Source: an uncultured Gemmatimonadales bacterium (GTDB taxonomy: Bacteria; Gemmatimonadota; Gemmatimonadetes; Gemmatimonadales; GWC2-71-9). Taken from it: 64,000 nucleotides of DNA. The stretch is taken from NCBI GenBank assembly GCA_963777835.1, contig CAVZRK010000006.1, positions 988,010-1,052,009 on the forward strand, read 5' to 3'. A program made the position numbers and the translations under genes. Position 1 is the stretch's first letter. The number at the start of each line of letters is the position of its first letter. The notes beneath the pieces are model-generated. The model did not search any database and was not told where the DNA came from. It saw only the letters and a list, made by a program, of their open reading frames with translations. Below, one piece after another: positions 7,975 through 63,022 of the stretch.

Positions 7975-10395
7975 CTAGAGCAAGCTGACCGGATCGCGGT
8001 CGATGGTGACCCGCGGCTCGCCCGACCCGGCCAGGCGCGTCGCGGCATACCGCACCACGCGTCCGAGGACACCCCCCTCTCCCTTGAGGGCCACGTGCCA
8101 GCGCCAGCGGTCCTTGATTCGCGCGAGCGGACAGGGGGCCGGCCCCAGTACCGTGAGCTCGAGCCCGTGTCGCTCGGCGAGCGCCGCGGCCCACTCGGCC
8201 GTTTCCGCGGCCACACGACCCACCGCCGTCTCCTCCCGGCCGGAGACGACCAGGTTCACGAGCCCCGTGGCCGGGGGATAGGCGGGGGACGCCCGGAGTG
8301 CGAGTTCGTCCCCCAGGAATCCTTCCGCGTCGTGCCTGGCGGCGCGGAGGAGCGCGTGGTGGGTCGGCTGGCGCGTCTGGACCACCACCCGCCCCCCCGC
8401 AGGGCCCCGCCCGGCGCGGCCCGCCACCTGCGCGATCAGCTGGAAGGTCCGCTCGGCCGACCGGAAGTCGGGGAGATGCAGCGCGGTGTCGGCGTCCACC
8501 ACGCCCACCAGGGTCACGTTCGGGAAGTCGAGGCCCTTGGCGATCATCTGCGTGCCGAGGAGGAGGTCCACCTCCCGCCGCTCGACGGTGCCGAGAATGC
8601 GGTGGTGGGCCCACTTGGTGCTGGTGGTGTCGAGGTCCATCCGGGCCAGCCGCGCCGAAGGGAAGCGCTCCGCCAGCCAGCGCTCCAGCTGCTGCGTGCC
8701 GACGCCGCGCATCTGCGCGACGGCGTGGCCGCAGGCCGCGCAGCACTCCGTGAGCGGCGCCTCGTGCGCGCAGTAGTGACAGCGGAGCGCCGGCGGCGAC
8801 TGATGCACCGTCAGGCTGATGCTGCAGGAGGGGCACTCGGGCACGTGGCCGCAGTCGGGGCACTGCAGGAACGCCGCGAAGCCGCGCCGGTTGAGGAGGA
8901 GCATCCCCTGCTCGCCGCGGGCCAGCACCCGGCTCACCGCCCCGTCCAGTTCCTCGGACCAGGGAATCGCGCCGGAGCCGGGGATCTTCGGCGCCGTGCG
9001 CAGGTCCACCAGCACCACCGGCGGCAGCTTCCCCGCCCCGGCGCGCTCCGGCAGCGGCACCAGCGTGAGCCGCTTGCCCGGGCCCGCCTCGGACCAGCTC
9101 TCGAGCGATGGCGTGGCGCTGCCGAGCACCAGGCGGGCCCCCTCGAGCCGGGCGCGGACGGCGGCCACCTCCCGCGCGTGGTAGCGCGGCGACTCGCCGT
9201 TCTTGTAGGTGGCCTCGTGCTCCTCGTCCACCACGATCACGCCAGGCGCGGCCACCGGCGCGAAGATGGCCGACCGCGCCCCGACCGCCACGCGCCGCTC
9301 CCCGCGCCGCAGCGCGCGCCAGGCGTCGGCCCGCTCGCCGTCGGAAAGTCCGCTGTGGAGCACCGCCACGTCGTCGCCGAACATGCCACGGACTCGCCGC
9401 ACCGTCTGCGGCGTCAGGCCGATCTCGGGCACCAGGATAATGGCGCCGCGGCCGGTCTCGAGCCCGCGCCGGATCGCCTCGAGATAGACGAACGTCTTCC
9501 CGCTGCCGGTGATCCCGAAGAGGAGCGCCCCCTCCCCCGCGGCGAGCCCCTCGATGTCGGCGAGCGCGCGCCGCTGGTCGCCGGAGAGTCCCTCGGGCGG
9601 CGGCGTCCCCGCCTCGCCGGCGAAGGGATCGCGCACCCGCTCCACTTCCTCGACGGCGGCGTGCCCTCCGCCGACCAGCGCCCGGATCAGCGCCGTGCTG
9701 AATCCGAGTTGGGTGCGCAGGTGCGCGACCGGGGCGCTGCCGCCCAGCTGCTCCACCGCTTCGTACAGCGCGCGCTGCCTCGGCTTGCTCCCGAACGCCT
9801 CCTGGCGCTCGAGCAGCGTGAGCCGCCGGTCGGGAATCACCAGGAGCCGCTCGGTCACGGCGCCACCGCCGGTGTCCGGCGGCACGACGCGAAGGGTGAC
9901 CGCCCCGACGCGCGCCAGGCGGTCCACGGCGTCCCACACGCCGCGCTTCATCCCGCGGGCGATGGACGGAACCGACGCCGACCCGCCCTTCCGTTCCAGC
10001 CACTGGAGGATTTCGGCGCCCGTGCCGCCCGGGACCCGGGATGCCGCGGCGATATCCACCACGACTTCACTGCCGCCCCACAGGCCCGACGGAAGCGCCG
10101 CCTTCAGCGCGAGTCCGATCGGCGCGCCGTAGTAGCCGGCCATCCACTCGACCGTGCGGAGGAGCGCGGGCGTCAGCGCCGGCTCGTCGTCGGGCGTGGC
10201 GAGGATCGGCCGCGCCGTCATCTCGGGGGCGGGCGCTTCAATGGCGGTGACGATGCCGATCAACTCCCGGCCGCGCACCGGCACCACGACGCGCGCCCCG
10301 GCCGCCACGCGGTCGGCCAGGGTCTCGGGAATCTGGTAGGTGTAGGGAGTGGCGAGGGGGAGCGGAAGCGCGACCTGCGCGTACCGTTCGGTCAT
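7975..10395 (-). CDS. priA: primosomal protein N' (replication restart helicase PriA)
   Basis: Start trimmed to ATG 10395 (MTERYAQVALPLPL...). Walker A GITGSGKT, DEEH box VVDEEHE, Cys-rich Zn region CPDCGHVPECPSCS...CHYCAHE...CAACG. Confidence 0.9.
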   Translation of the reverse strand: MTERYAQVALPLPLATPYTYQIPETLADRVAAGARVVVPVRGRELIGIVTAIEAPAPEMTARPILATPDDEPALTPALLRTVEWMAGYYGAPIGLALKAALPSGLWGGSEVVVDIAAASRVPGGTGAEILQWLERKGGSASVPSIARGMKRGVWDAVDRLARVGAVTLRVVPPDTGGGAVTERLLVIPDRRLTLLERQEAFGSKPRQRALYEAVEQLGGSAPVAHLRTQLGFSTALIRALVGGGHAAVEEVERVRDPFAGEAGTPPPEGLSGDQRRALADIEGLAAGEGALLFGITGSGKTFVYLEAIRRGLETGRGAIILVPEIGLTPQTVRRVRGMFGDDVAVLHSGLSDGERADAWRALRRGERRVAVGARSAIFAPVAAPGVIVVDEEHEATYKNGESPRYHAREVAAVRARLEGARLVLGSATPSLESWSEAGPGKRLTLVPLPERAGAGKLPPVVLVDLRTAPKIPGSGAIPWSEELDGAVSRVLARGEQGMLLLNRRGFAAFLQCPDCGHVPECPSCSISLTVHQSPPALRCHYCAHEAPLTECCAACGHAVAQMRGVGTQQLERWLAERFPSARLARMDLDTTSTKWAHHRILGTVERREVDLLLGTQMIAKGLDFPNVTLVGVVDADTALHLPDFRSAERTFQLIAQVAGRAGRGPAGGRVVVQTRQPTHHALLRAARHDAEGFLGDELALRASPAYPPATGLVNLVVSGREETAVGRVAAETAEWAAALAERHGLELTVLGPAPCPLARIKDRWRWHVALKGEGGVLGRVVRYAATRLAGSGEPRVTIDRDPVSLL

Positions 10396-11408
10396 CGCGG
10401 CGTGACGCCGAGCCCCGGGCCGGTGGGGAGGCGGAGCTGGCCGCCCGCGATGGTGGCGCCGACGAACGGGTCCTCCGCCAGGAGCGCCGCGCCGTCGAGG
10501 TCCACGATGTCCACCAGCGGCGTGAAGTGCGCCGCCGCGGTAATGGCGAGCGAGCTCTCGATCATGCAGCCGACCATGACCGTCATGTGGTGCGCCCGCG
10601 CGACGGCGATCATCCGGATCGCCTCGCGGAGGCTGCCGCACTTGGCCAGCTTGATGTTGATGCCGTCCACCTGCCCCACCAGGCCGGGGATGTCGCTCGC
10701 GGTCCGGCACGACTCATCCGCGATGATCGGGATGGACGCGGCCATGCGGATGACCCCGAGTCCCTCCACGTCGGTCGGGACGAGCGGCTGCTCCAGCACC
10801 GTCACGCCGAACTCCTCGAGCACGGGCAGCATCTGGATGGTGTGCTTGACGGTCCAGCCGCAGTTGGCGTCCACCCGCAGCTCGCGGTCGGTGGCGTCGC
10901 GGATGGTCTGCAGGATCTCCAGGTCGCGGTCGCTGCCGAGCTTGATCTTGAGGATCGGGTATTCGGCGGCCTCGTGCACCTTCATCCGGATCCGCTCCGG
11001 CGTGTCGATCCCGATGGTGAAGGTGGACATCGGCGCCTTGGCGGGGTCGAGACCCCACAGCTTGTACACCGGCACGCCGAGCCGCTTGCCGACCAGGTCG
11101 TGCATGGCGGCGGACAGGGCGGCCCGCGCCGAAGGGTTGCCCCGGAGCGCCGTCTCGAGGCGGCGGTCGGTCTCCTCGAGGTCGAACGGGTCGGCCGGCA
11201 GGTGTTGCGCGTAATGCTGGAGCACCTCCATGACCGTTTCCGGGGTTTCGCCGTAGAACTTCGTCGGCGCCGCCTCGCCCCAGCCCTCGTGGCCGTCCCC
11301 GTCGGTCAGCCGCACCCAGACGGTCTTGTAATCGCTCTGCCCGCCCCGGGCGATGATGAAGGGATGCCGGGTGCGGAGGAGGAGGTATTCAGCCTGGAGA
11401 CGCAGCAT
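10392..11408 (-). CDS. dipeptide epimerase (L-Ala-D/L-Glu epimerase-like, enolase superfamily MR/MLE)
   Basis: 338 aa with the catalytic pattern KIKLG / RVDANCGW / LEQPL / IIADES / NIKLAKCGSL. The stop overlaps the priA start (ATGA). Confidence 0.8.
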   Translation of the reverse strand: MLRLQAEYLLLRTRHPFIIARGGQSDYKTVWVRLTDGDGHEGWGEAAPTKFYGETPETVMEVLQHYAQHLPADPFDLEETDRRLETALRGNPSARAALSAAMHDLVGKRLGVPVYKLWGLDPAKAPMSTFTIGIDTPERIRMKVHEAAEYPILKIKLGSDRDLEILQTIRDATDRELRVDANCGWTVKHTIQMLPVLEEFGVTVLEQPLVPTDVEGLGVIRMAASIPIIADESCRTASDIPGLVGQVDGINIKLAKCGSLREAIRMIAVARAHHMTVMVGCMIESSLAITAAAHFTPLVDIVDLDGAALLAEDPFVGATIAGGQLRLPTGPGLGVTPR

Positions 11409-11444
11409 GTGATGACCCGATGGAAGTTGGTGGCCGTAACCTAA

Positions 11445-11564
11445 CTGAATTCACGAAAACACGAAAACACGAAAGCACGAAAGAAAGACACCTGCCTATA
11501 CACTGGAAAATGGTCCTGGCTGAGTCACAGGTCCTTTCGTGCCTTCGTGATTTCGTGGGTTCAG
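11445..11564. repeat. inverted arrays of an octamer (CACGAAAR x4 ... YTTTCGTG x3) flanking a ~50-nt low-GC loop
   Basis: CACGAAAA CACGAAAA CACGAAAG CACGAAAG at 11452-11483. CTTTCGTG CCTTCGTG ATTTCGTG at 11534-11557. Outer CTGAA/TTCAG pairing. It fills the gap between the HDAC-family stop (11565) and the epimerase start (11408). Confidence 0.8.
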
Positions 11565-12461
11565 TCATCCCAGCGCCGCCACGAACGCCGCCGCGCCCTT
11601 CGCGAGCCGTCCCGGCACATACCCGCCCTCGAGGGTGCCGAGGATCGGCGCCTCCGGCATCCGCTCCCGAAGCCGCTCCGTGAGAACCCGGTAGTGGCGC
11701 GGCTGCAGCGTGAAGCCGCCGAGCGGATCTCCCGCCATCGCATCGAACCCCGCGGAGACGATGATCGCGTCCGGCGTCCACTCCCTGGTGGCGGCCTCGA
11801 CGGCCAGCCAGAGCTCCCGCACATACTGCTCCGGCTCCAGCCCGCCGGGCAGCGGCACGTTGAACACATTGCCCACGCCCCGCTCCGACGCCGCCCCCGT
11901 GAACGGCCACCACGGCGACTGGTGCAGTGACACGAAGCGCACCTCGGCGTCGTGCTCGACCAGCGCCTGGGTGCCATTCCCGTGATGGACGTCCCAGTCC
12001 ACGATCAGCACCCGGCGGCGCCCCAGCGCCTGGAACCGCCGCGCCGCGAGCACCGCGTTGTTGACGAGGCAGAACCCCATGACGCGGTCGGCCAGGGCGT
12101 GGTGGCCGGGTGGCCGTACCGCCGCGAAGGCGTGGCCCGCCCCGCCGTGCGCGTGTCCGGCCGCCTCGAGGACGGCGCCGGTGGCGGCGAGCATCGCGTC
12201 CCAGCTGCGGGCGTTCATCACGGTGTCGGGGTCGAGCCGCCCTCCCCCCGCCGCGTGGGTGTCGCGCAGGAGCTGGAGGTGCCCAGGGGTGTGCACTGCG
12301 AGGAGCACATCGGGAGTGGCGGGGCCGGCGGTGTGGAGCTCGACGCCGGGAAGCGCCCCCAAAGCCTCCATCACGGCCACGATCCGGCCCGGGGCCTCGG
12401 GATGCCCGGGGCCCGCGTCGTGGAGCGTACAGCTGGGGTGGCTGTAGACGGCGACGGCCAT
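11565..12461 (-). CDS. histone deacetylase-family (acetoin utilisation / acetylpolyamine-type) deacetylase
   Basis: 298 aa with motifs VRPPGHHA and IVDWDVHHGNGTQ. Confidence 0.85.
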   Translation of the reverse strand: MAVAVYSHPSCTLHDAGPGHPEAPGRIVAVMEALGALPGVELHTAGPATPDVLLAVHTPGHLQLLRDTHAAGGGRLDPDTVMNARSWDAMLAATGAVLEAAGHAHGGAGHAFAAVRPPGHHALADRVMGFCLVNNAVLAARRFQALGRRRVLIVDWDVHHGNGTQALVEHDAEVRFVSLHQSPWWPFTGAASERGVGNVFNVPLPGGLEPEQYVRELWLAVEAATREWTPDAIIVSAGFDAMAGDPLGGFTLQPRHYRVLTERLRERMPEAPILGTLEGGYVPGRLAKGAAAFVAALG

Positions 12462-54070: not shown

Positions 54071-54205
54071 CCGCCGGAAGGCGAGGACCCCGCGGGGCTC
54101 GGACGTCGCTGGAATTCAGGACCAACGCAGGTTCGTCATGCCGTCTCGCTGAAACAGGGTGGTCGCAGGCGCCCGCCGGGTCCTCCCGGCGGGCGGGTGC
54201 GGGCC

Positions 54206-54577
54206 CTACTTCATTTCGACGGTGGCGCCCTGCTCTTCGAGCTTCTTCTTCAGTTCTTCCGCCTCGGCCTTGGAGATGCCCTCCTTGATGACGCCACCGG
54301 CGTCCACCAGGTCCTTGGCTTCCTTCAGGCCCAGGCTCGTCACTTCGCGCACGACCTTGATGACCTGGATCTTCTTGGCGCCGCCGTCCTTGAGGACGAT
54401 CGAGTACTCGGTCTGCTCCTCGACCGCCGGGGCCGCCGCCGCCGCGCCCGCCGCCGGGGCGGCCATGACGGAGACGTTGAACTTCGTCTTGAAGGACTCG
54501 ATCAGGTCCGCCAGCTCGAGCACGGTCTTGTTGCCAATCGCGTCGAGGATCTGCTCATTGCTCATCGTGGTGCTCAT
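54206..54577 (-). CDS. rplL: 50S ribosomal protein L7/L12
   Basis: Start trimmed to ATG 54577 (GGAGAG RBS; [27 protein letters not shown]…). C-terminus …[38 protein letters not shown]. Confidence 0.95.
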
Positions 54578-54596
54578 CGGGATGCTCTCCGTCGGG

Positions 54597-55091
54597 TTAG
54601 GATGCCGCGGCGCTGCGCTGCTCACGCAGTGCCTCGAGTGCGCCGACCATGGTGTACAGGACGCCGTTCATTGCGCCGGCCAGCTGGGCCAGCAGGACTT
54701 CGCGCGGCGGGATCTCGCCGAGCCGCTTCACGTGGGCCGGGGTGACGGTTGCGCCGTCCACCCGCCCCATCTTGACCGTGGGCTTGTCGCCGAACTCCTT
54801 GGCGAACTCGGTCAGCACCTTGGCGGCCGAGAGCGGGTCGTGCGACAGCACGAGGCCGGTCGGGCCGTTGAAGTGCGCGTCGAGCCCCTCGATCTGGTTG
54901 GCCGCGAGGGCCCGCTGCGCCAGCGTGTTCTTCACCACGACGTAACTGGCGCCGGCCGCCCGGAGGCGACGGCGGAATTCCGTCATGCGGAGCACGTTGA
55001 GGCCGCTGAAATCCGTGACATAGACGTTGGGAGACGCCTTCAAGGCTGCCGTGAGGGTCTCGACCTCCGCCTGCCGTTCGGTCTTGCTCAT
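54597..55091 (-). CDS. rplJ: 50S ribosomal protein L10
   Basis: Start trimmed to ATG 55091 ([33 protein letters not shown]...). The ATG overlaps the rplA stop (ATGA). Confidence 0.9.
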
Positions 55092-55777
55092 TTGTACCCC
55101 GCCGTCTCGAGCCGCACGCCCGGGCCCATGGTGCTGGACACGGTCGCCGACCGGATGTAGACGCCCTTGGCCGCGGCCGGCTTGGCCCGCATGATGGTGT
55201 CCATGAACGCCTGGAGGTTTTCCGCCAGCTGGGCCTCGCTGAACGACACCTTGCCGATCGGGACGTGCACGTTGCCGGTCTTGTCGACCCGGAACTCGAT
55301 CTTGCCCGCCTTGATTTCCCGGACCGCCTTGGCCACGTCCAGCGTGACCGTGCCGGCCTTCGGGTTCGGCATCAGGCCGCGGGGACCGAGCACGCGGCCG
55401 AGCTGGCCGAGCTGGCCCATCACGTCCGGCGTGGCGACGATCACGTCGCACTCGAGCCACCCGTCCTTCAGCTTCTGGAGGAACTCGAGCCCGACGAAGT
55501 CGGCCCCGGCCGCCTCGGCCTCCTTGGCCTTCTCGCCCTGCGTGACGACCAGCACCCGCACCGTCTTGCCGGTGCCGTGCGGCAGGACCACGGTGCCCCG
55601 GACGACCTGGTCCGCGTGCCGCGGGTCCACGCCGAGCCGGACCGCCACGTCCACCGTCTCGTTGAACTTGGCCTTGGCGGCCGCCTTGACGGCGGCGCAC
55701 GCCTCGGCGCTGTTGTAGGTCTTGCTGCGGTCGACCGTGGCCGCCGCGGCGAGGTACCGCTTGCCGTGAGTGGCCAT
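55088..55777 (-). CDS. rplA: 50S ribosomal protein L1
   Basis: Start trimmed to ATG 55777 ([19 protein letters not shown]…), 229 aa. Confidence 0.95.
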
Positions 55778-56202
55778 CAGTCGATGACCTCCAGCCCCAT
55801 CGACCGGGCAGTGCCGGCGATCATCCGCATGGCGCTGTCGAGGGATGCGGCGTTGAGGTCGGCCATCTTGATCTCGGCGATCTTCTTGACCTGCGCCGAG
55901 CTGACCTTGCCGACCTTGGTCCGGTTGGGCTGCGCGCTCCCCTTCTCGATGCCCGCCTCCTTGAGGAGGAGGTTCGGGGCCGGCGGGGTCTTGGTGATGA
56001 ACGTGAACGTCCGGTCGCCGTAGATGGTCACGACGACGGGGATCACCATTCCGCTCTGGCTCTGGGTCCGCGCGTTGAACTGCTTGCAGAACTCCATGAT
56101 GTTGACGCCGTGCGGGCCCAGCGCCGTCCCGACCGGGGGCGCGGGGTTCGCGGCGCCAGCCGGAACCTGCAGCTTGACGAGCGCCTGGATCTTCTTCGCC
56201 AT
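55777..56202 (-). CDS. rplK: 50S ribosomal protein L11
   Basis: 141 aa; [40 protein letters not shown].... Confidence 0.95.
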
Positions 56203-56308
56203 ACGACTCCTCGTGGTGCGCCGGGGCGATCAACCGCCCCTGGCTCCCGCGTGTTCCGCGCGGTGGCGGTGCAGCCCCCGGAGGGGCGCAAGAGCGGCGC
56301 CTGCCGCC

Positions 56309-56851
56309 CTAGTGACCGCGAAGCTGGAGGTAATCCAGCTCGACGGTCGTCGGCCGGCCGAAGAGGCTGACCGACACCTTGACCTTGCCCTTGTCGGCCA
56401 GCACTTCCTCGACCGTGCCGCTGAAGTCGGAGAAGGGGCCTTCCGTGATCTCGACCACCTGGCCGGGCAGGAAGGGAATCTCCTCCTTCGGCGAGGCGTC
56501 CGACGTCTGCTCGGCCACGCCCAGGAGCCGGTTGACCTCTTCCTGGCGCAGCGGCTGCGGCAGCTTGCCAGTGCCGACGAACTTGATGACGCCCTGGATG
56601 CTGTTGACCAGGTGCAGCGCCTCCTGGCTCATCCCCATCTCGACGAGGACGTAGCCGGGGTACAGCTTCCGCTCGACGGTGACCTTCTTGCCGTTCTTGA
56701 TCTCGACGGCCTCCTGCACCGGCACCAGCGCCTGGCGCACCAGCCGCTCGTCGGCGGCCCGAGGATCCTCGTCGATGCGCCGCTGCAGCAGCCCGCGGAC
56801 CTTGTTCTCGTGGCCGGCGGTCGTCTGGATCGCGTACCAGCGGTAGTCCAT
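56309..56851 (-). CDS. nusG: transcription termination/antitermination factor NusG
   Basis: Start trimmed to ATG 56851 (MDYRWYAIQTTAGHENKV…). KOW motif FLPGQVVEITEGPFSDFSGTVEEV. Confidence 0.95.
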   Translation of the reverse strand: MDYRWYAIQTTAGHENKVRGLLQRRIDEDPRAADERLVRQALVPVQEAVEIKNGKKVTVERKLYPGYVLVEMGMSQEALHLVNSIQGVIKFVGTGKLPQPLRQEEVNRLLGVAEQTSDASPKEEIPFLPGQVVEITEGPFSDFSGTVEEVLADKGKVKVSVSLFGRPTTVELDYLQLRGH

Positions 56852-56856
56852 GGCGA

Positions 56857-57111
56857 TCACCGAGCCAGCCGCGCGACGCCGTCCACCAGGATCAGTTGGA
56901 GCAGCAGGTCGAGCCAGCCGATCAGGAGCCCGAGGGCCACCGACATGATCAGGATCATGCGCGTGGCCTTCTTCAGCTCGTCCGTGGACGGCCACGAGAC
57001 CTTCTTCATTTCGGCCCGCACGGCGACCAGGAAGTGCCCGGTGCGGCGGACCCAGCCGCCGAGCCCGGTGCCGGCCTCCAGCGCGCGCCCACCCTGCGCG
57101 GAAGTCTCCAT
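56857..57111 (-). CDS. secE: preprotein translocase subunit SecE
   Basis: Start trimmed to ATG 57111; 84 aa; …VRAEMKKVSWPSTDELKKATRMILIMSVALGLLIGWLD…. Confidence 0.85.
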   Translation of the reverse strand: METSAQGGRALEAGTGLGGWVRRTGHFLVAVRAEMKKVSWPSTDELKKATRMILIMSVALGLLIGWLDLLLQLILVDGVARLAR

Positions 57112-57113
57112 GC

Positions 57114-57266
57114 CTACTTCGACTCCTTGTGGAGCTGGTGCTTGTCGCACCGCGGGCAGTACTTCTTCCACTCGACGCGCTCCGGATGCTTCCGACGGTT
57201 CTTGTCGGTGAAGTAGTTCCGGTTCTTGCAGTCGGTGCACTCGAGAATGATCTTTTCGCGCGGCAT
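57114..57266 (-). CDS. rpmG: 50S ribosomal protein L33 (50 aa, Cys-containing type)
   Basis: Not in the ORF track (too short). My translation of the minus strand gives [50 protein letters not shown], stop TAG at 57114-57116. Canonical position upstream of secE. Confidence 0.85.
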
Positions 57267-57387
57267 AGTTCAGCGGGGCAGCGAGGCAGCGGGGCGGCGG
57301 GGCAGTGTGTGCCGGTCGCCGGTCCGTCTGTCCGCCTGTCCGCCCTCCGTAAAAGTGGTACTCCAGCGCCCTGCGACGCCCTGCCAG

Positions 57388-57460
<73 letters not shown>

Positions 57461-57474
57461 AACCTCACGTCCAG

Positions 57475-57547
57475 AGCGGGCGACGGGACTCGAACCCGCG
57501 ACCCTCAGCTTGGAAGGCTGACGCTCTACCAACTGAGCTACACCCGC
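57475..57547 (-). tRNA. tRNA-Gly (anticodon TCC)
   Basis: GCGGGTG…GCTCAGTTGGTAGAGC…TCAGC-CTTCCAA-GCTGA…GCGGGTTCGAGTCCCGT-CGCCCGC-T cloverleaf. CCA not encoded. Confidence 0.9.
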
Positions 57548-57585
57548 CGGTGTCCTGCTGCCTGACCATGGCCCGCTGCCAGGCA

Positions 57586-57669
57586 TGGTGGGGGTAGGAT
57601 TCGAACCTACGTAGGGCGAAGCCCGGCAGATTTACAGTCTGCTGCCATTAGCCACTCGGCCACCCCACC
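57586..57669 (-). tRNA. tRNA-Tyr (anticodon GTA, long variable arm)
   Basis: GGTGGGG…GCAGACTGTAAATCTGC…variable arm CGGGCTTCGCCCTAC…GGTTCGAATCC…CCCCACC-A. Confidence 0.9.
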
Positions 57670-57751
57670 GCGCTGCCTGCTACCCCCCGATACAGAACCC
57701 CGCCACCAACTGGGCGGGGTTTGAACCTCGAGAGTTTTCCTGCACTTCAGC

Positions 57752-57827
57752 TGGAGCTGACGAAGGGACTCGAACCCCCAACCGGTGGTTTACAAAACCA
57801 CTGCTCTACCAATTGAGCTACGTCAGC
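57752..57827 (-). tRNA. tRNA-Thr (anticodon TGT), CCA encoded
   Basis: GCTGACG-TA-GCTC-AATTGGTA-GAGC-A-GTGGT-TTTGTAA-ACCAC…GGGGGTTCGAGTCCCTT-CGTCAGC-TCCA. Confidence 0.9.
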
Positions 57828-57853
57828 GCGAAAGCCAAAATAGGCAGACCCAT

Positions 57854-57882
57854 ATGATAGAGGGGGACATAGCAATAGTCAA
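57854..57882 (-). promoter_or_regulatory. candidate sigma-70 promoter of the tRNA/rpmG-secE-nusG cluster (TTGACT-N17-TATCAT)
   Basis: Minus strand reads TTGACT attgctatgtccccctc TATCAT; the -10 ends ~27 nt upstream of the tRNA-Thr(TGT) 5' end. It lies in a locally AT-richer patch. Confidence 0.5.
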
Positions 57883-58107
57883 CTGCTGACGAGCGGCGGG
57901 GATGCGGGGCTGGGGGGGGGCCCGACCCTGACCCCTGGCCAGCCGATTTCCTGCTTCCTGTATCGGTTTCCCCCTGATACATTCGGATGCTTCCGCTCCA
58001 CTACTGTCGCCAGAATGACGCCCTTTCCAGGTTCGGCCGCCCTCCGGCCGTCGCCTCGGCACGGCCGGTCGAAGGCGGCTCCACGAGCACCCCGGGACGA
58101 CGATAAC

Positions 58108-59118
58108 ATGGCCGACCTCAACAAGATGACCGACTGGGACCAGTTGAAGGCGATGCTGGAAAAGAAGGCGAACGAGTCCGGCCCGAACAAGATCGACGAG
58201 ACCGCCCTCAAGGACCACATGCGCTCCCGGGTCAAGGGCCAGGAACCGATCATCGAGGACGTTGCCAAGCTCCTCCGGCTCCAGTCGGCCAAGCGGACCA
58301 GCGACCGCCCGATCGCCAACCTCCTCTTCCTCGGGCCGACCGGCACCGGGAAGACCGAGCTGGCCAAGGCGATCGCCGAATATCTGTACCAGGACGAGAA
58401 GGCGATGCTCCGCTTCGACTGCTCCGAGTTCACCGGCCCAGAAGCCAAGACCCGGCTCATCGGCACGCCGGCCGGGTACGTGGCGTCCGAAATGGGCGGC
58501 CAGCTGACCCGCCCAGTCCTTTCGAACCCCCGCCGCTTGGTCCTCTTCGACGAAATCGAGAAGGCCTACAGCGAGGTCTTCGACCTCTTCCTGCAGCTGA
58601 TGGGCGAGGCCCGACTCACCGAGCAGGGCTCCGGCAAGACGGTGGACTTTTCCCAGACCATCATCATCCTCACCAGCAACGCCCACGCCGAGCAGATCGG
58701 GAAGATCAAGGCGGAGGTGTCGGATTATCACGAGATGGTCAACGCGGTGAAGAGCTACCTGGCCGACAGCAAGGTGTTCCGCCCCGAGATCCTCGGCCGC
58801 ATCGACCGGGTGTACGTCTTCCAGCCGCTCGAGGGGATGGTCATCGCCGAAATCGCGATCCTCAAGCTGGCCAAGCTCGGCAAGGAGTACGGGGTCAAGG
58901 TCCAGTTCGTCGCCCCGGAACTGCTGGTCCAGGCGCTGATCGCGGGCCAGAAGGTGAGCCGGTTCGGCGTCCGCGAGCTCGACCGGGTGATCTTCGACAT
59001 GTTCGCCCTCCAGCTGACCGAGGCCAAGGAGAACGGCGTCAAGGAAGTCACCATCGACGTCGGCGACGACGGCAATCCGCGGGTGACCCCCGTCGTGCCG
59101 AACGCGCCGTCCGCGTGA
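58108..59118 (+). CDS. orphan single-module AAA+ ATPase of the ClpA/ClpB NBD2 type (soluble)
   Basis: Walker A LLFLGPTGTGKTELAKA. LIGTPAGYVASEMGGQLT (cf. the ClpB GYVG pore-loop region). Walker B LVLFDEIEKA, sensor-1 IILTSN, FRPEILGRIDRVYVF, D2-small-like tail with FGVRELDR. ATG 58108 preferred; ATG 58015 of the ORF track is possible. Confidence 0.75.
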   Translation: MADLNKMTDWDQLKAMLEKKANESGPNKIDETALKDHMRSRVKGQEPIIEDVAKLLRLQSAKRTSDRPIANLLFLGPTGTGKTELAKAIAEYLYQDEKAMLRFDCSEFTGPEAKTRLIGTPAGYVASEMGGQLTRPVLSNPRRLVLFDEIEKAYSEVFDLFLQLMGEARLTEQGSGKTVDFSQTIIILTSNAHAEQIGKIKAEVSDYHEMVNAVKSYLADSKVFRPEILGRIDRVYVFQPLEGMVIAEIAILKLAKLGKEYGVKVQFVAPELLVQALIAGQKVSRFGVRELDRVIFDMFALQLTEAKENGVKEVTIDVGDDGNPRVTPVVPNAPSA

Positions 59119-59163
59119 ACTCACACTACCACCCTGCCCCACTCCGCTCCGAGGTGACGCCGC

Positions 59164-60090
59164 ATGGCTACTGGACCTGACGCCGGCGGGCCGCGCGGCC
59201 CCGATCGCATCCGCCCCGCCTCTTCCTCCCCGCGCGGACGGGACGCGGAGCCGGTCGCCGGCCGCGGCGGCGCCTACAGCGCACCGCCCCCGGCCGATCC
59301 CTCCGGAGGGCCCGGCAAGGGGAAGCGTTCGACCCCGTGGTGGCTGCTCGGCGCGGTGGCCGTGGTCCTCGTCGGAGGCATGCTTTACCAGGGCACCATC
59401 GGCGGCGCACCGACCCAGCCGCCGGCAGTCGAGCAGACGACTTCCGCGGCCGTGACCGTGCTGGCCCTCGGCACGGCGGACATTGACCAGCCCGCGACCG
59501 ATCTCGCCAAGGCGCTTATCGCCGAGGGCGCCCTCCCCGCCCCGCCGAAGGGGCCGTCTGCAGCGACGGTGCCGGCGGGCCCGCCCCCCACGACCACAAC
59601 CGACGCACCGACCGCCGCTCCCGACGTCGCGCCGCCTGCGGCTGCGACGCCCCAACCCGCGCCGGTGGTCCACCGCCCGAAGCCTGCGCCCGACAGCCCG
59701 AAGCCGGCCGCGCCGGCCCCGGCGCCCGTGGCGGAGACCGAACAGGCGGTTCGCCAGATGCTCGCCCAGGCCCCCGAAGAGACGCGTGCCGGGATTGCCG
59801 ACGGCCGGCAGGTCATCTACAGCCTCCACGTCCTCGACGACATCGCGGAAGACGGCGACATCGTCGAGATCTTCGTGAACGGCACCTCCTACGGCCGGAT
59901 CCTGCTCAGCAACGCCGGCCAGGACGTGCTGATCCCGCTCCCGGTCGGCACGAACGCGCAGGTGCATGTGCTCGCGGTCCAGGACGGTGGCGGCGGAGTG
60001 ACTTTCGGCGTGACCACTTCCCAGGGCGAGATCCGCAGCACCGTGATGCCTCAGGGCGGCAGCGACGACTGGAGCGTGACGATCCAATGA
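59164..60090 (+). CDS. bitopic membrane protein: Arg-rich N-terminus, one TM helix, Pro/Ala/Thr-rich linker, unknown ~110-aa C-terminal domain
   Basis: GAGGTGA RBS 8 nt upstream. TM WWLLGAVAVVLVGGMLY. Linker …PPKGPSAATVPAGPPPTTTTDAPTAAPDVAPPAAATPQPAPVVHRPKPAPDSPKPAAPAPAP…. C-terminal beta-rich part …IVEIFVNGTSYGRILLSNAGQDVLIPLPVGTNAQVHVLAVQDGGGGVTFGV…. The stop overlaps the next ATG (ATGA). Confidence 0.65.
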   Translation: MATGPDAGGPRGPDRIRPASSSPRGRDAEPVAGRGGAYSAPPPADPSGGPGKGKRSTPWWLLGAVAVVLVGGMLYQGTIGGAPTQPPAVEQTTSAAVTVLALGTADIDQPATDLAKALIAEGALPAPPKGPSAATVPAGPPPTTTTDAPTAAPDVAPPAAATPQPAPVVHRPKPAPDSPKPAAPAPAPVAETEQAVRQMLAQAPEETRAGIADGRQVIYSLHVLDDIAEDGDIVEIFVNGTSYGRILLSNAGQDVLIPLPVGTNAQVHVLAVQDGGGGVTFGVTTSQGEIRSTVMPQGGSDDWSVTIQ

Positions 60091-61214
60091 CCAGAGCGGA
60101 ATCGCAGGCGGCGCCATACCAGTTGATCATGATGGTGGTGATCCTGTCCGGCGCCGTCATCGGCCTCAACCGCGTCAGTCCCCTGATCGCGCCGGGCATC
60201 CTGGCGGCGTCGCTCGTGGGGATCGCCGTCCTCCTGCTTCGCGGCCGGGCGGAGGCACGGCGGGAAGCCGGCAGGGCGCATCTGGTGGATCACGCCAAGC
60301 TCAACAAGATGTCCATCAACCGGTTCTTGCCGTGGCTCAAGGAAAACGTGCGCGGGCAGGACGCCGTCGTGGACGTGATCTTCTCCGAGCTCGAACGGGG
60401 GCTGAAGCTGGCCAAGCCGGGGCGGACGATCGGCGCCTTTCTTCTCGTGGGCCCGACTGGCACCGGCAAGACCTTTCTGTCCACGCTCATCGGGCAGGCG
60501 CTCTTCCCGAACTCCAAGCCGGTGGTGCTCCGGATGAACCAGTACAAGCACCCCGACGACGTCTACACCCTGCTCGGCCCGCCGCCCGGCATGCCCGGGT
60601 ACGAGGTGGGCGGCGCGTTGACCCGCCCGGTGCTGGAGAACCCGTACCGTGTGGTGATCTTCGACGAAATCGAAAAGTCGCACAAGGACGTCCAGCATTG
60701 CCTCTACGACGTGCTCGACGCCGGCAACTGCCGAGAGAAGAGCTCGGGCAAGCTGGTGGACTTCAGCGGCACCGTCTTCTTCGCGACCTCCAACGCAGCG
60801 GTGCCCGCCCTGCGGCAGATCCGCGCGCAATCGAAGGACGCCGCGACGTGGCTGGGACAGAGCCGGGACGCGCTGGCCGACGCCGGCGGCTTCGACAAGG
60901 CGTTCCTGGCGCGCTGGACCGGGATCTACCTGATGGACGAGCTGCACCCCATGCACGTGGCCGAAGTGGCGTGCCTGCAGCTGGCCTCGCATTGGAAGGA
61001 GTATGACATCGAGGTGGCGCACGCCTCCCCCGAGGTCATCCTGAGCGCGGTGGAAGGCAACGAGGCGTTCAAGGAGTACGGCGTGCGCCAGCTGGGCGCT
61101 TACCTCCAGACCGTCACGAAGGACGCGATCCTGAAGGCCAAGGAAGACGGCGCCAAGAAGGTGTGGCTCGGGGTCGGGCCGGACCGTTCCCTCTCCATCT
61201 CACGGACGGAGTAG
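60087..61214 (+). CDS. membrane-anchored AAA+ ATPase of the ClpA/ClpB NBD2 type (two N-terminal TM helices)
   Basis: TM hairpin YQLIMMVVILSGAVIGL / ILAASLVGIAVLLL. Walker A FLLVGPTGTGKTFLSTL. LLGPPPGMPGYEVGGALT. Walker B VVIFDEIEKS, sensor-1 FFATSN, D2-small-like tail with YGVRQLGAYL. Confidence 0.75.
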   Translation: MTRAESQAAPYQLIMMVVILSGAVIGLNRVSPLIAPGILAASLVGIAVLLLRGRAEARREAGRAHLVDHAKLNKMSINRFLPWLKENVRGQDAVVDVIFSELERGLKLAKPGRTIGAFLLVGPTGTGKTFLSTLIGQALFPNSKPVVLRMNQYKHPDDVYTLLGPPPGMPGYEVGGALTRPVLENPYRVVIFDEIEKSHKDVQHCLYDVLDAGNCREKSSGKLVDFSGTVFFATSNAAVPALRQIRAQSKDAATWLGQSRDALADAGGFDKAFLARWTGIYLMDELHPMHVAEVACLQLASHWKEYDIEVAHASPEVILSAVEGNEAFKEYGVRQLGAYLQTVTKDAILKAKEDGAKKVWLGVGPDRSLSISRTE

Positions 61215-61216
61215 CC

Positions 61217-62458
61217 GTGCGTCCACTTCGCAGCGACCCCTGGTTCCAGGCCTTCGCCATCCTGGCCGTCGTGTCCGCGGGCGTCACCGCCATGAACTTC
61301 GTCCCAGGGCTCGGCGGGGCCGGCAAGGCGCCGGCTCCGCAGACCGCAGCCGTGCCTGACACCAGCGGTTCCGACTCCGTCCCTCCGGCCGACACGGCCA
61401 AGAAGCCCGCCGCGACCCCACCCGACACTACGGCGGTTGCACAGGCGGCACCCGCTGCCACGCAGCCCCCGGCCACGGTCGCGAGCAAGCCGGTCACGAC
61501 GCAGGCGGCTCCCCCGGCGGGCACCGGAGCCGCCAAGCCGGCCGCCACGCCCCCGGCCTCGCCACCCCCCGCGGGAGGCAAGCCCTCCAAGGCGATCGTG
61601 GGGGCCGACTCCGGGTTCATTTCGGAGGTCGCGTTCGCCGACGCCAAGAACGGCATCCTGGTCGGCACGGGCGGCCTGGTAGCCCGGACCACCGACGGCG
61701 GCGTCACCTGGACCCCGTCCGGGCCAGAACTCACGCCGAAGACCCGCATGCTGACGGTGAGTTACCTCTCCGCGCGCGACGTCCTCATCGCGGGCGGCGG
61801 AGGGCATATGTACCGCTCGACCGACGGCGGGAGCAGCTGGACGTTCGTGGAGCGGAGCTCGGCAGGCCTGATCATCCATCTCGCGCTGCGCGGCCAGCAG
61901 GCGGTGGCCGTCGGAGGGAGCGGGCTCATGCTCCGCTCGAGCGACGGCGGAGCGACGTGGCGCGAGGTCCGGGCCGGCGTCTCGACGGGGCTCCTCTACG
62001 CCGCGTTCGCCGGGCAGGACAACGTCGTGGCCGTCGGGAAGGACGGCATGGTCCTGCGCTCGAAGGACGGCGGGCAGACCTGGACCCAGATCAAGGCCGG
62101 CACCTCGAAGTCCCTGGCAGGCATCGCCATGCTCGGCGGCGGCAAGGGATTCGTGGTGGGAGACGGCGGGACGATCCTGGAGACGGCCGACGGTGGCGCG
62201 ACCTGGGACCCGGTCACCGCCCCGACCAACGTGGACCTGACGGCCGTCGCCTTCGCCGACGACCAGAGGGGGATTGCGGTCGGCGCCCACGGCGCCATCC
62301 TCCTCACCGAGGACGGCGGGAAGACCTGGCGGGCGCGGCCCACGGGGCAGAACGTCACACTGAGCTCGGTGGCCTTTGCCGGCACCCGGACCGTCGTCGC
62401 GGTCGGGAGCAAGGGACTCGTCCTGAGGAGCGCGGACGGCGGCCAGACCTGGCAGTAG
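61217..62458 (+). CDS. membrane-anchored seven-bladed BNR/Asp-box beta-propeller (Ycf48/HCF136-like)
   Basis: GTG 61217, 2 nt after the preceding stop (the track start 61163 overlaps the upstream gene). TM FQAFAILAVVSAGVTAM. Pro/Ala/Thr linker. Seven S/T-x-D-G-G-x-T/S-W boxes (TTDGGVTW, STDGGSSW, SSDGGATW, SKDGGQTW, TADGGATW, TEDGGKTW, SADGGQTW). Confidence 0.7.
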   Translation: MRPLRSDPWFQAFAILAVVSAGVTAMNFVPGLGGAGKAPAPQTAAVPDTSGSDSVPPADTAKKPAATPPDTTAVAQAAPAATQPPATVASKPVTTQAAPPAGTGAAKPAATPPASPPPAGGKPSKAIVGADSGFISEVAFADAKNGILVGTGGLVARTTDGGVTWTPSGPELTPKTRMLTVSYLSARDVLIAGGGGHMYRSTDGGSSWTFVERSSAGLIIHLALRGQQAVAVGGSGLMLRSSDGGATWREVRAGVSTGLLYAAFAGQDNVVAVGKDGMVLRSKDGGQTWTQIKAGTSKSLAGIAMLGGGKGFVVGDGGTILETADGGATWDPVTAPTNVDLTAVAFADDQRGIAVGAHGAILLTEDGGKTWRARPTGQNVTLSSVAFAGTRTVVAVGSKGLVLRSADGGQTWQ

Positions 62459-62497
62459 GCGCCGTCAGTCAGTCGCCAGCACGCACTTGCATGCAAT

Positions 62498-62531
62498 TCG
62501 GCCCCCGGTCCAGCGATGGACCGGGGGCCGA
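62498..62531. terminator. bidirectional GC-rich hairpin between convergent genes
   Basis: TCGGCCCCCGGTCCA-GCGA-TGGACCGGGGGCCGA, a 15-bp perfect stem between the stop at 62458 (+) and the stop at 62549 (-). Only short T tracts flank it. Confidence 0.55.
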
Positions 62532-62548
62532 TTCGCGATCAGACCTGC

Positions 62549-63022
62549 TCAGTCGCTCAGAAACTTGATGTAGGACTTCACCTGGGCGCCGTACAACTTG
62601 ATCCAGGCCTTGATGATGTCGTCCGTGACCCCACCCGCAAAGTCCAGGTCGCTCTCGAGCACCGGGTTGCCGTCGTCATCGGCATAGGCGCGGCCGAAGC
62701 GGTGGTCCGCGTTCCACTCATTCATCTGCTTGGCGTTGACCTGGGTGTCGCCGAACCCGATGTACAGCTGGGCATCGGTATTGTCGTTCGCCATGATGAG
62801 CAGGACCTTCTTGCCGTCGAGGTCCACACGCCACGACGTGTCGCTCTTCTTTTCGAAGTCGAGGCCCATGCTGCTCAGGATCGATTCCATGTGCTTGGCC
62901 GAGACCGAGCTCATGATTTCCTGGGCGCTGGCGGTTGCGGGACGCGCGGCGGCGGCCAGCATGACGAGGCCGATTGCGGCAAGCGCCGCGCGGGCGGCGC
63001 CTCGGGACGAGCGGTTGAACAT
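62549..63022 (-). CDS. YbjN-like (putative sensory-transduction-regulator fold) protein with a signal peptide
   Basis: 157 aa. Signal peptide …AALAAIGLVMLAAAARPATASAQE. The body (…FEKKSDTSWRVDLDGKKVLLIMANDNTDAQLYIGF…DLDFAGGVTDDIIKAWI…) resembles YbjN/T3SS-chaperone-like domains. Confidence 0.5.
   Translation of the reverse strand: MFNRSSRGAARAALAAIGLVMLAAAARPATASAQEIMSSVSAKHMESILSSMGLDFEKKSDTSWRVDLDGKKVLLIMANDNTDAQLYIGFGDTQVNAKQMNEWNADHRFGRAYADDDGNPVLESDLDFAGGVTDDIIKAWIKLYGAQVKSYIKFLSD

Follow-up and report, generated by a model that had tools for sequence, protein, structure and literature searches.

In this study, we analyzed a 64,000-nucleotide stretch of DNA (hereafter the window) from an uncultured Gemmatimonadales bacterium (contig CAVZRK010000006.1, positions 988,010 to 1,052,009) and found a genuine and widespread module of four genes, designated G1 to G4, at 58108-62458 on the plus strand. 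G1 and G3 encode paralogous AAA+ ATPases related to ClpB, and G2 and G4 encode bitopic proteins with one transmembrane (TM) helix each. The propeller domain of G4 is a lineage-specific plug-in to this module. As a general model, we propose that the four products form a conserved inner-membrane AAA+ machine that matches no described system in the libraries and literature searched. We rate this model as only slightly less probable than its contrary.

The four co-directional genes are tightly packed in a genome of ~68% guanine plus cytosine (GC), and cluster members are labelled Gemmatimonadota. G1 spans 58108-59118 and encodes 336 amino acids (aa). The ATG at 58108 was preferred over 58015 as its start because the orthologues keep the MADL..MTDW start. 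G2 (59164-60090, 308 aa) begins 45 nucleotides (nt) after G1, and a Shine-Dalgarno (SD)-like GAGGTG, read from the sequence at 59152-59157, lies 6 nt 5' of its start codon. The start of G3 (60087-61214, 375 aa) overlaps the stop of G2 in ATGA at 60087-60090. G4 (61217-62458, 413 aa) follows after 2 nt, and its GTG start at 61217 was chosen because it is homologous to that of L095 (MSMRPLRSDPW), one of the related loci, which are numbered here with the prefix L. All of these coordinates reproduced those of the original prediction, which had described four packed genes with a 45-nt gap containing an SD, an ATGA overlap, and a 2-nt gap. A hydropathy scan found no TM helix in G1 and two in G3 (residues 9-27 and 33-51), and the G3 hairpin occupies residues 9-51 (60111-60239, plus strand). 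The same scan bore out the rest of the predicted topology, a soluble G1, an anchored G3, and a single TM helix in each of G2 and G4.

Searches starting from G1 and from G2 recovered G1, G2, and G3 together in every locus with enough flanking sequence. The trio was seen in Gemmatimonadota, in one Pirellulales metagenome-assembled genome (MAG), and in several other metagenome lineages. On long contigs, every G1 homologue is accompanied by these neighbours; the homologues share 68-70% identity with G1, and one comes from the Pirellulales MAG. L006 and L007 contain G1, a G2-like gene, a TM-anchored AAA gene, and a large fourth gene. The metagenome scan from G2 yielded 20 loci, and all of those with room have G1-G2-G3 in that order. 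Elsewhere the order is permuted, as G2-G3-X-G1 in L008 and L009. L115 begins with a G2-like gene and a TM-anchored degenerate AAA, followed by a β-helix protein, a G1 orthologue (64% identical, in a low-GC host), and then an FG-GAP protein. In L116, a G2-like gene and a gene for a small TM protein come first, followed by a TM-anchored AAA whose Walker B is degenerate, a G1-like gene (48%), and a type IV secretion system (T4SS) coupling-protein-like gene. Since the order is permuted in L008 and L115, selection acts on the linkage and not just on an inherited order. The carriers comprise Gemmatimonadota and MAGs labelled Pirellulales, Verrucomicrobiota, Bacteriovoracaceae, and Alphaproteobacteria. 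The original prediction had staked its claim on synteny beyond close relatives, and the module is indeed present in distant lineages.

The gene for the DGGGGVT sandwich, the domain that ends G2, lies beside a TM-anchored AAA_2 gene in the window, L001, L006-L009, L090-L103, L105, L106, L110-L113, and L115-L117. L114 is the sole exception seen to this adjacency. Trios composed of a G2-like gene, a TM-anchored AAA gene, and a third gene, without G1, were found in L110, L112 (Xanthobacteraceae MAG), L117 (Hyphomicrobiaceae MAG), and the Methylorubrum plasmid pB146-2. Such reduced sets are seen in Alphaproteobacteria. A scan of a genome collection with the G1 alignment returned 80 further loci (L010-L089), which were rejected as Clp genes; they are 36-46% identical, and none has a G2 homologue. 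The pattern [IV]LFDEIEK used in that scan also matches ordinary ClpB and ClpC.

We then compared the two ATPases with curated families. Pfam AAA_2 matched G1 with 149.5 bits (1e-43) and G3 with 98.8 bits (5e-28) against a cut-off of 27, and the two proteins are paralogues with 34% identity over 300 aa. Along the 853 positions of the ClpB model TIGR03346 of NCBIfam, G1 aligned with 558-844 and G3 with 563-826, including the small domain, at 221.6 and 131.9 bits against a cut-off of 1232. Alignment with ClpB, ClpA, ClpV, ClpG, and ClpK was confined to the second nucleotide-binding domain (NBD2) and the small domain, and the scores of G1 and G3 were 4-10 times lower than the equivalog cut-offs of these families. 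The best PDB sequence matches of G1 were the D2 domains of ClpC and ClpB (~1e-50). At the domain level, the AAA_2 matches and the motif alignment identify G1 and G3 as NBD2-type AAA+ modules. Of the profile matches that had been predicted, AAA_2 for G1 and G3 and BNR/Ycf48 for G4 were obtained, and G2 was unmatched as expected, but the ClpB_D2-small match failed to appear, since Pfam gave none for G1 or G3 at E <= 0.01. No NCBIfam equivalog cut-off was reached by G1, G3, or G4. The proposal that the ATPases stand outside characterized families agrees with their scores below the curated cut-offs for ClpB, ClpA, ClpV, ClpG, and ClpK.

The four genes might be mere neighbours without a joint function, or G1 and G3 might be ordinary Clp fragments, such as a split or decayed clpB or the ClpV of a type VI secretion system (T6SS). 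JGI pipelines do name G1 and G3 'ClpA/ClpB/ClpC'. However, their scores are far under every Clp equivalog cut-off, and the G1 family is uniform in size, at 323-381 aa among the 120 members listed. No T6SS genes were present in the window flanks or in the related loci examined. The ratio of nonsynonymous to synonymous substitution rates (dN/dS), at 0.006-0.04, excludes decay. Linkage conserved in distant lineages with permuted order argues against mere neighbours. We consider this explanation, in either form, scarcely credible.

Against the nearest relative, L090, dN/dS was 0.006 for G1, 0.037 for G3, 0.063 for the G2 domain, and 0.045 for the G4 propeller. The G4 anchor was 100% identical with a dN/dS of 0, and the linkers gave 0.16-0.22. 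These results indicate that all four are functional genes, because all are under purifying selection. G1 was among the most constrained genes measured and therefore does something important. Positive selection on the propeller was also considered and was not supported, since dN/dS was 0.045-0.13 in close relatives.

G1 carries Walker A (GPTGTGKT), the pore-loop Tyr124 (G-Y-[VIH]), Walker B (DEIEK), sensor-1 (TSN), an Arg finger in GRID, and sensor-2 in GVRE. The motifs were numbered by alignment with E. coli ClpB NBD2, with a reference sequence that reproduces the known positions Y653, E678, N719, R756, and R815. Tyr124 is invariant across 17 orthologues. By its motifs, G1 is predicted to be a complete polypeptide-threading motor of the ClpB-NBD2 type. 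G3 retains Walker A/B, sensor-1, the Arg finger, and sensor-2 in the motif alignment, but G-M-P-G replaces GYVG in its pore loop (residues 168-171, 60588-60599, plus strand). The pore-loop Tyr is replaced in 11 of 11 aligned G3 sequences, which read GPPPG[MTSV]PGYEVGG. The paralogous pair with full Walker A/B and sensor-1 had thus been described correctly, but its two members are not equivalent, as G3 has no threading pore loop. Loss of the Arg finger from G3 (FRPEF to FDKAF) was considered and ruled out, because the true finger is the NRID Arg, which G3 keeps as ARW. The ClpP-docking tripeptide [ILV]G[FL] was not seen in G1 or G3 on inspection of the alignment; after TSN, G1 reads AHAEQIGKIKAE.

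The loss goes further in other lineages. In L115 and L116, the TM-anchored paralogue is without Walker motifs (in L116, Walker B is degenerate), and the G1 orthologue is intact, with 64% and 48% identity, respectively. This makes G3 a better candidate for the membrane anchor or regulator of G1 than for a second motor. G1 orthologues in other lineages are 64-78% identical, and G3 orthologues are 54-66% identical. From these comparisons, G1 and G3 appear clearly non-equivalent, the anchored paralogue being the degenerating one and the soluble G1 the most conserved component. In the three-gene variants without G1 (L110, L112), the sole TM-anchored AAA keeps GYVG, and a membrane-bound threading activity is therefore likely to be the ancestral core. 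The alignments suggest that an ancestral membrane-bound threading AAA+ was later duplicated, one copy becoming the motor (G1) and the other serving as anchor or regulator (G3).

G3 orthologues also conserve Cys residues that G1 and ClpB lack, in C-L-[YF]-D-x-L-D-x-x-x-C-R-E-K and V-A-C-L-Q-L (residues ~205-220 and ~300). Two of these Cys, 11 residues apart in the large AAA subdomain, may bind a metal or act in redox chemistry.

G2 belongs to no family in Pfam, NCBIfam, or PADLOC. Its layout is a disordered Pro/Gly/Arg-rich tail (residues 1-55), a TM helix (56-74 in the hydropathy scan, taken as 56-76 in the domain layout), a strand and helix at 98-121, a Pro/Ala/Thr linker, and a C-terminal domain. 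In the full-length AlphaFold2 (AF2) model, the tail had a predicted local distance difference test (pLDDT) score below 50 and was Lys/Arg (K/R)-rich just ahead of the TM helix. The strand-helix element is conserved and had a pLDDT of 96. The signature domain (residues 186-308, 59719-60087, plus strand) consists of two helices and an eight-stranded β-sandwich with the motifs EDGD and DGGGGVT, and is predicted to be periplasmic. These last 123 residues were modelled by AF2 with a pLDDT of 94 and a predicted template modelling (pTM) score of 0.83. Foldseek found no fold match to the G2 domain in the PDB at E <= 1e-3. The best PDB fold match, the bitopic accessory protein MmpS5 (template modelling score 0.39-0.47), was treated as generic β-sandwich similarity. 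A BFVD search with the domain gave template modelling scores of at most 0.54 and uninformative names.

A profile of the G2 domain matched the representatives of at least 1245 clusters built at 50% identity, and 851 of these matches had E <= 1e-10. The domain was C-terminal in all 150 matches listed, in host proteins of ~90-390 residues. These results demonstrate that the G2 domain is a sizeable uncharacterized family. In L114 (Rhodovulum sp. P5 plasmid pRGUI01, 6182-7375), the domain ends a 397-aa secreted protein with no AAA+ gene nearby. Since it occurs there without an AAA+ neighbour, the domain is not strictly tied to the ATPase.

The product of G4 consists of an anchor (DPWFQ, TM helix at 12-30 by the hydropathy scan, and N27; 61217-61306), a Pro/Ala/Thr linker of ~100 residues (33-130), and a seven-bladed BNR/Ycf48-like propeller (residues 131-413, 61607-62455), all encoded on the plus strand. 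Pfam PSII_BNR matched G4 at 8e-36 (124 bits), and seven S/T-x-D-G-G-x-(T/S)-W boxes were counted in the translation. The BNR propeller is confined to the Gemmatimonadota relatives L090-L096. In other loci, the gene after G3 carries Sel1 repeats (L006, L007, L101, and L111, where G1-G2-G3 are followed by two tandem Sel1-type fourth genes) or a WD40 propeller (L099, L100), and the G4-type ectodomain of L008 and L115 is a β-helix. Sel1 is the commonest type. Across the BNR, WD40, Sel1, and β-helix versions, the aligned anchors have a nearly invariant W9 and N27, spaced 17 residues apart around the TM helix, and all are followed by a low-complexity linker. G4 is therefore a conserved membrane anchor with an exchangeable repeat domain, because the anchor is shared despite unrelated ectodomains. 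The Ycf48-type propeller of the original prediction is present in G4 but does not define the module; it is limited to the Gemmatimonadota lineage, and it is the anchor that is conserved instead.

In a single lineage, comprising L098 (9450-10679), L099 (4533-5762), and L100 (1814-2962), G3 and the WD40-type G4 are separated by an extra gene, whose product has a signal peptide, paired Cys in Sel1/Hcp-like repeats, and a C-terminal domain. This secreted Cys-rich Sel1-like protein points to a periplasmic side of the function. At 10900-11300 of L006, an 803-kb contig, the G4 anchor (MKKMINLLTSSGWFMILAVTAGISGVFTIYNQ) and the Sel1 repeats are in different frames, which reflects either an assembly-error frameshift or a pseudogene.

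The variability of the fourth gene raised the question of whether G4 is a client of the other three products. In that case, the AAA+ pair and G2 would serve these large repeat proteins as a dedicated chaperone or assembly apparatus, either maintaining them in an unfolded state for export or recycling them out of the membrane. A G4-type gene is always present, with very variable fold and number (tandem Sel1 genes in L111, extra secreted Sel1-like genes in L098-L100), and the conserved anchor could serve as a recognition tag. However, such proteins can take the Sec pathway without an AAA+ unfoldase, G4 has only ~8-10 residues on the cytoplasmic side at its N-terminus, too few for threading to begin, and G2 would be left without an obvious role. 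We regard a client role for G4 as decidedly improbable.

An exchangeable ectodomain on a constant anchor could also belong to an anti-phage or inter-bacterial conflict system, in which the variable periplasmic repeat of G4 would sense an invader or toxin and the AAA+ pair would trigger, for example, membrane disruption or effector extraction. BNR, WD40, Sel1, and β-helix scaffolds are swapped on this anchor, and repeat scaffolds of this kind serve as sensors in conflict systems. Several variants are on or near mobile DNA. In L112, an integrase and DUF927 adjoin the module, and in L115 the module comes directly after an integrase and an excisionase-type helix-turn-helix gene, downstream of a tRNA-His gene. 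L113, a 38-kb Methylorubrum plasmid, has a T4SS coupling-protein gene close to the module and, at a distance of a few kb, a relaxase gene as well as an ImmA/IrrE-DUF4411 pair. The AAA cores of G1 and G3 also resemble DolB and PDC-M37B. On the other side, PADLOC matched no system; the matches of G1 and G3 to DolB and PDC-M37B cover the generic AAA core only, and no neighbour protein, including G2 and G4, matched a PADLOC model. Of the proposed DefenseFinder/PADLOC check, PADLOC returned partial AAA-core matches and nothing more. The window copy lies at a site that is conserved across its Gemmatimonadota relatives, with the tRNA cluster upstream in L091 and L094, and its GC is like that of the surroundings. 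No effector domain (nuclease, protease, or pore-former) was recognizable, and a scan of IMG/VR viral contigs found no relative. The identity of 64-78% of G1 across distant lineages, with dN/dS of 0.006-0.06 even in the propeller, is atypical of arms-race genes. On this evidence, a conflict system is an unlikely explanation, albeit one that we would place above the client role.

Recent horizontal transfer of the window copy was considered separately and found no compositional sign, as GC is flat along it, at 0.63-0.74. In L116, the AAA pair is followed immediately and on the same strand by a T4SS coupling-protein-like gene (T4SS-DNA_transf/TrwB; 10136-12187). The Methylorubrum plasmid has such a gene near its trio, on the other strand (L113, 4307-5857). 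This proximity may be coincidental or may reflect a connection with conjugation. A tRNA gene (Thr, Arg, His, or Pro) occurs within ~5 kb of the module in four unrelated lineages and within 0.6 kb in three (window, 57387-57827; L006, 7317-7390; L115, 1786-1861; L110, 11937-12014). In L115, the integrase lies between the tRNA gene and the module. Proximity to tRNA genes is the pattern expected of cassettes that arrive on tRNA-integrating islands.

We next compared the module with known systems. At the system level, nothing fits, as ClpB, ClpA, ClpV, Torsin, FtsH, Dodola/PDC-M37, and Ycf48 each fail at least one tested feature. The NBD2 domains of ClpB/Hsp104 and ClpC/ClpA are the closest in sequence. 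G1 is ~42% identical to E. coli ClpB NBD2, and Walker A/B, the pore-loop Tyr, sensor-1, the Arg finger, sensor-2, and the small domain align. In contrast to ClpB, ClpC, and ClpA, G1 (336 aa) and G3 (375 aa) are single modules without an N-domain, NBD1, or middle domain. One of the two copies is membrane-anchored and has no pore-loop Tyr, and both are encoded with two bitopic proteins. The ClpA equivalog gave 189 bits against a cut-off of 993, and the ClpV/TssH model TIGR03345 gave 169.5 and 134.2 bits against 885. Skd3 (human CLPB) is similar in that an NBD2 module alone works as a single-ring unfoldase, and it is among the PDB matches of G1 (7us2, 8zr0, 7ttr; ~1e-33), over query residues 32-203, the large AAA subdomain only. 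However, Skd3 has ankyrin repeats, and it has neither a membrane-anchored paralogous partner nor partners like G2 and G4.

Two membrane-associated systems share part of the architecture and count, together with Skd3, as the closest analogies in function. Torsin is a ClpB-D2-derived AAA+ protein without aromatic pore loops that works with the membrane-anchored, degenerate AAA-like partners LAP1 and LULL1. The parallel here is the anchored G3 without a pore loop, Walker-degenerate in L115 and L116, and is an analogy only. The scores for Torsin PF06309 were 22.1 bits for G1 and 25.1 bits for the TM-anchored AAA of L112, under the cut-off of 27 bits. Moreover, G1 and G3 both keep the Arg finger, and their ATPase domains are cytoplasmic, whereas those of Torsin are lumenal. 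FtsH with HflK/HflC resembles the module in that G3 has a two-TM N-terminal anchor and a cytoplasmic AAA+ domain and that the bitopic partners have periplasmic domains. However, G3 belongs to the ClpAB-D2 clade and not to the classical AAA proteins. It has no Peptidase_M41 match, its Pfam AAA (PF00004) score is below the cut-off, and its best model is AAA_2. There are no SPFH partners, and a second, soluble ATPase is present.

The Dodola (DolA/DolB) and PDC-M37 systems contain a stand-alone ClpB-like AAA+ protein, and G1 and G3 match the DolB and PDC-M37B profiles. These matches span profile positions 117-301 of 375-390, and no DolA- or PDC-M37A-like partner was found. Ycf48/HCF136 is comparable to G4 only, as a seven-bladed BNR/Asp-box propeller matched by PSII_BNR at the domain level. 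The Ycf48 equivalog NF010237 gave 126.8 bits against a cut-off of 326. Unlike Ycf48/HCF136, G4 is TM-anchored with a linker of ~100 residues, and its flanks give no hint of photosystem II genes. No description of the module was found in the literature searched, including Kaur et al. 2020 (PMC7159879), in keeping with the earlier statement that no described system has this architecture.

In the proposed inner-membrane machine, the hairpin of G3 would form an assembly within the bilayer together with the TM helices of G2 and G4 and would tether the G1 motor to the cytoplasmic side, the two ATPases forming either a mixed ring or stacked rings. The motor would grip a handle in the cytoplasm. The best candidate for this handle is the disordered N-terminal tail of G2 (25-55 residues), because it is the only sizeable cytoplasmic segment among the partners. 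Pulling on it would lead to the remodelling or extraction of the bitopic partners. Facing the periplasm, the G2 sandwich and the exchangeable G4 ectodomain, which in the window is a BNR propeller, would supply the specificity for a target or ligand. In this way, ATP hydrolysis in the cytoplasm would be linked, in one direction or the other, to what happens on the periplasmic side. The output could be envelope protein quality control, signalling, or defence. The original prediction of a membrane-associated AAA+ remodelling or trans-envelope signalling or defence module is partly supported.

Several points weigh against this scheme. The K/R residues flanking the G4 TM helix are about equal on both sides, so the positive-inside rule leaves its topology unsettled, and the K/R counts of the WD40 versions favour a cytoplasmic C-terminus. 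The YSxPPP-like motif of the G2 tail was not found in distant variants, and some annotated G2 genes, such as that of L111, are short-tailed. The G3 of the window keeps all ATPase residues in the motif alignment and may itself be an active motor alongside G1 and not an anchor. The mixed or stacked rings are an assumption by analogy.

One specific output to be weighed is a quality-control system like endoplasmic-reticulum-associated degradation (ERAD), in which the G4 repeat and the G2 sandwich would act as periplasmic receptors that catch misfolded proteins, and the anchored AAA+ ring would pull them into the cytoplasm. A single-pass Sel1-repeat protein parallels Hrd3/Sel1L, the β-sandwich would be a second receptor, and a membrane AAA+ motor of the ClpB unfoldase type with its pore loop kept parallels Cdc48. 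A housekeeping function would agree with the strong purifying selection and the chromosomal location, and the named hosts all belong to diderm phyla. However, the comparison is pure analogy, and Sel1L is anchored at the opposite end. The module encodes no channel-forming multi-pass protein, only a two-helix hairpin per G3 subunit, and no protease partner, and G1 has no ClpP-docking IGF/L loop on inspection. The variants on mobile elements are also hard to explain in this way. We hold such a system to be about as improbable as the client role of G4.

In a bolder form of the machine model, the module would represent a new class of AAA+ machine that works across the membrane. Its ClpB-type motor, seated on a pore-loop-less membrane paralogue, would pull on single-pass partners, and their exchangeable periplasmic repeats would choose the target. 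We regard this claim as doubtful, and much less probable than the general model. If true, the module would either correspond in bacteria to retrotranslocation of the ERAD type or serve as an immune module that senses the periplasm and links recognition outside the cytoplasm to ATP-driven unfolding within it. Single-ring ClpB-NBD2 motors are known from mitochondria (Skd3) and a few defence candidates, and the literature searched contained no report of such a motor accompanied by a paralogue anchored in the membrane and by two partners that face the periplasm. The module offers an uncharacterized domain family, a natural case of subfunctionalized AAA+ paralogues (motor versus anchor), and a testable route to the coupling of cytoplasmic ATP with events in the ATP-free periplasm. 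Cultured Methylorubrum sp. B1-46 has a reduced three-gene relative on a small plasmid, which makes experiments feasible.

The flanks of the operon were then examined. The original prediction had bounded the unit by a tRNA promoter region on one side and a 15-bp hairpin on the other, and both were located. Four tRNA genes lie upstream on the minus strand (57387-57827), with secE-nusG-rplKAJL-rpoBC beyond them, and a consensus promoter scan placed a promoter-like site for these genes at 57882-57854 on the same strand. For the operon itself, the scan gave no sigma-70-like promoter. The 5' intergenic region contains an inverted repeat, TGTATC-N11-GATACA (57959-57981), which is a candidate promoter or operator element. 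It falls within the best-conserved block of the region upstream of G1 in the alignment with the Gemmatimonadota relatives L091 and L094, and may be a putative regulator-binding site. An Rfam search of the region gave no match beyond the four tRNAs.

Downstream, a perfect 15-bp GC-rich hairpin (62498-62531) lies between the convergent G4 and YbjN-like genes. The 95-nt stretch around it folds at -49.6 kcal/mol (z = -5.0), and 0 of 200 shuffles fold as well. The hairpin has no T tract and was not called by the consensus terminator scan; it is likely a bidirectional terminator. Many long antisense or overlapping open reading frames occur on both strands of 54159-62568, for example a 764-aa frame on the minus strand at 57823-60117. 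These are the stop-poor frames usual at ~68% GC and are not genes. The YbjN-family gene (62549-63022, minus strand; Pfam 5.6e-14) is followed by cysS. The N-terminus of its product resembles a signal peptide (MFNRSSRGAARAALAAIGLVMLAAAARPATASAQE). YbjN adjoins the operon downstream in L090-L093, L095, and L096 (68-93% identical), and cysS is present in all of these except L095. The YbjN-like gene could be a lineage-specific accessory part of the module or simply a stable neighbour.

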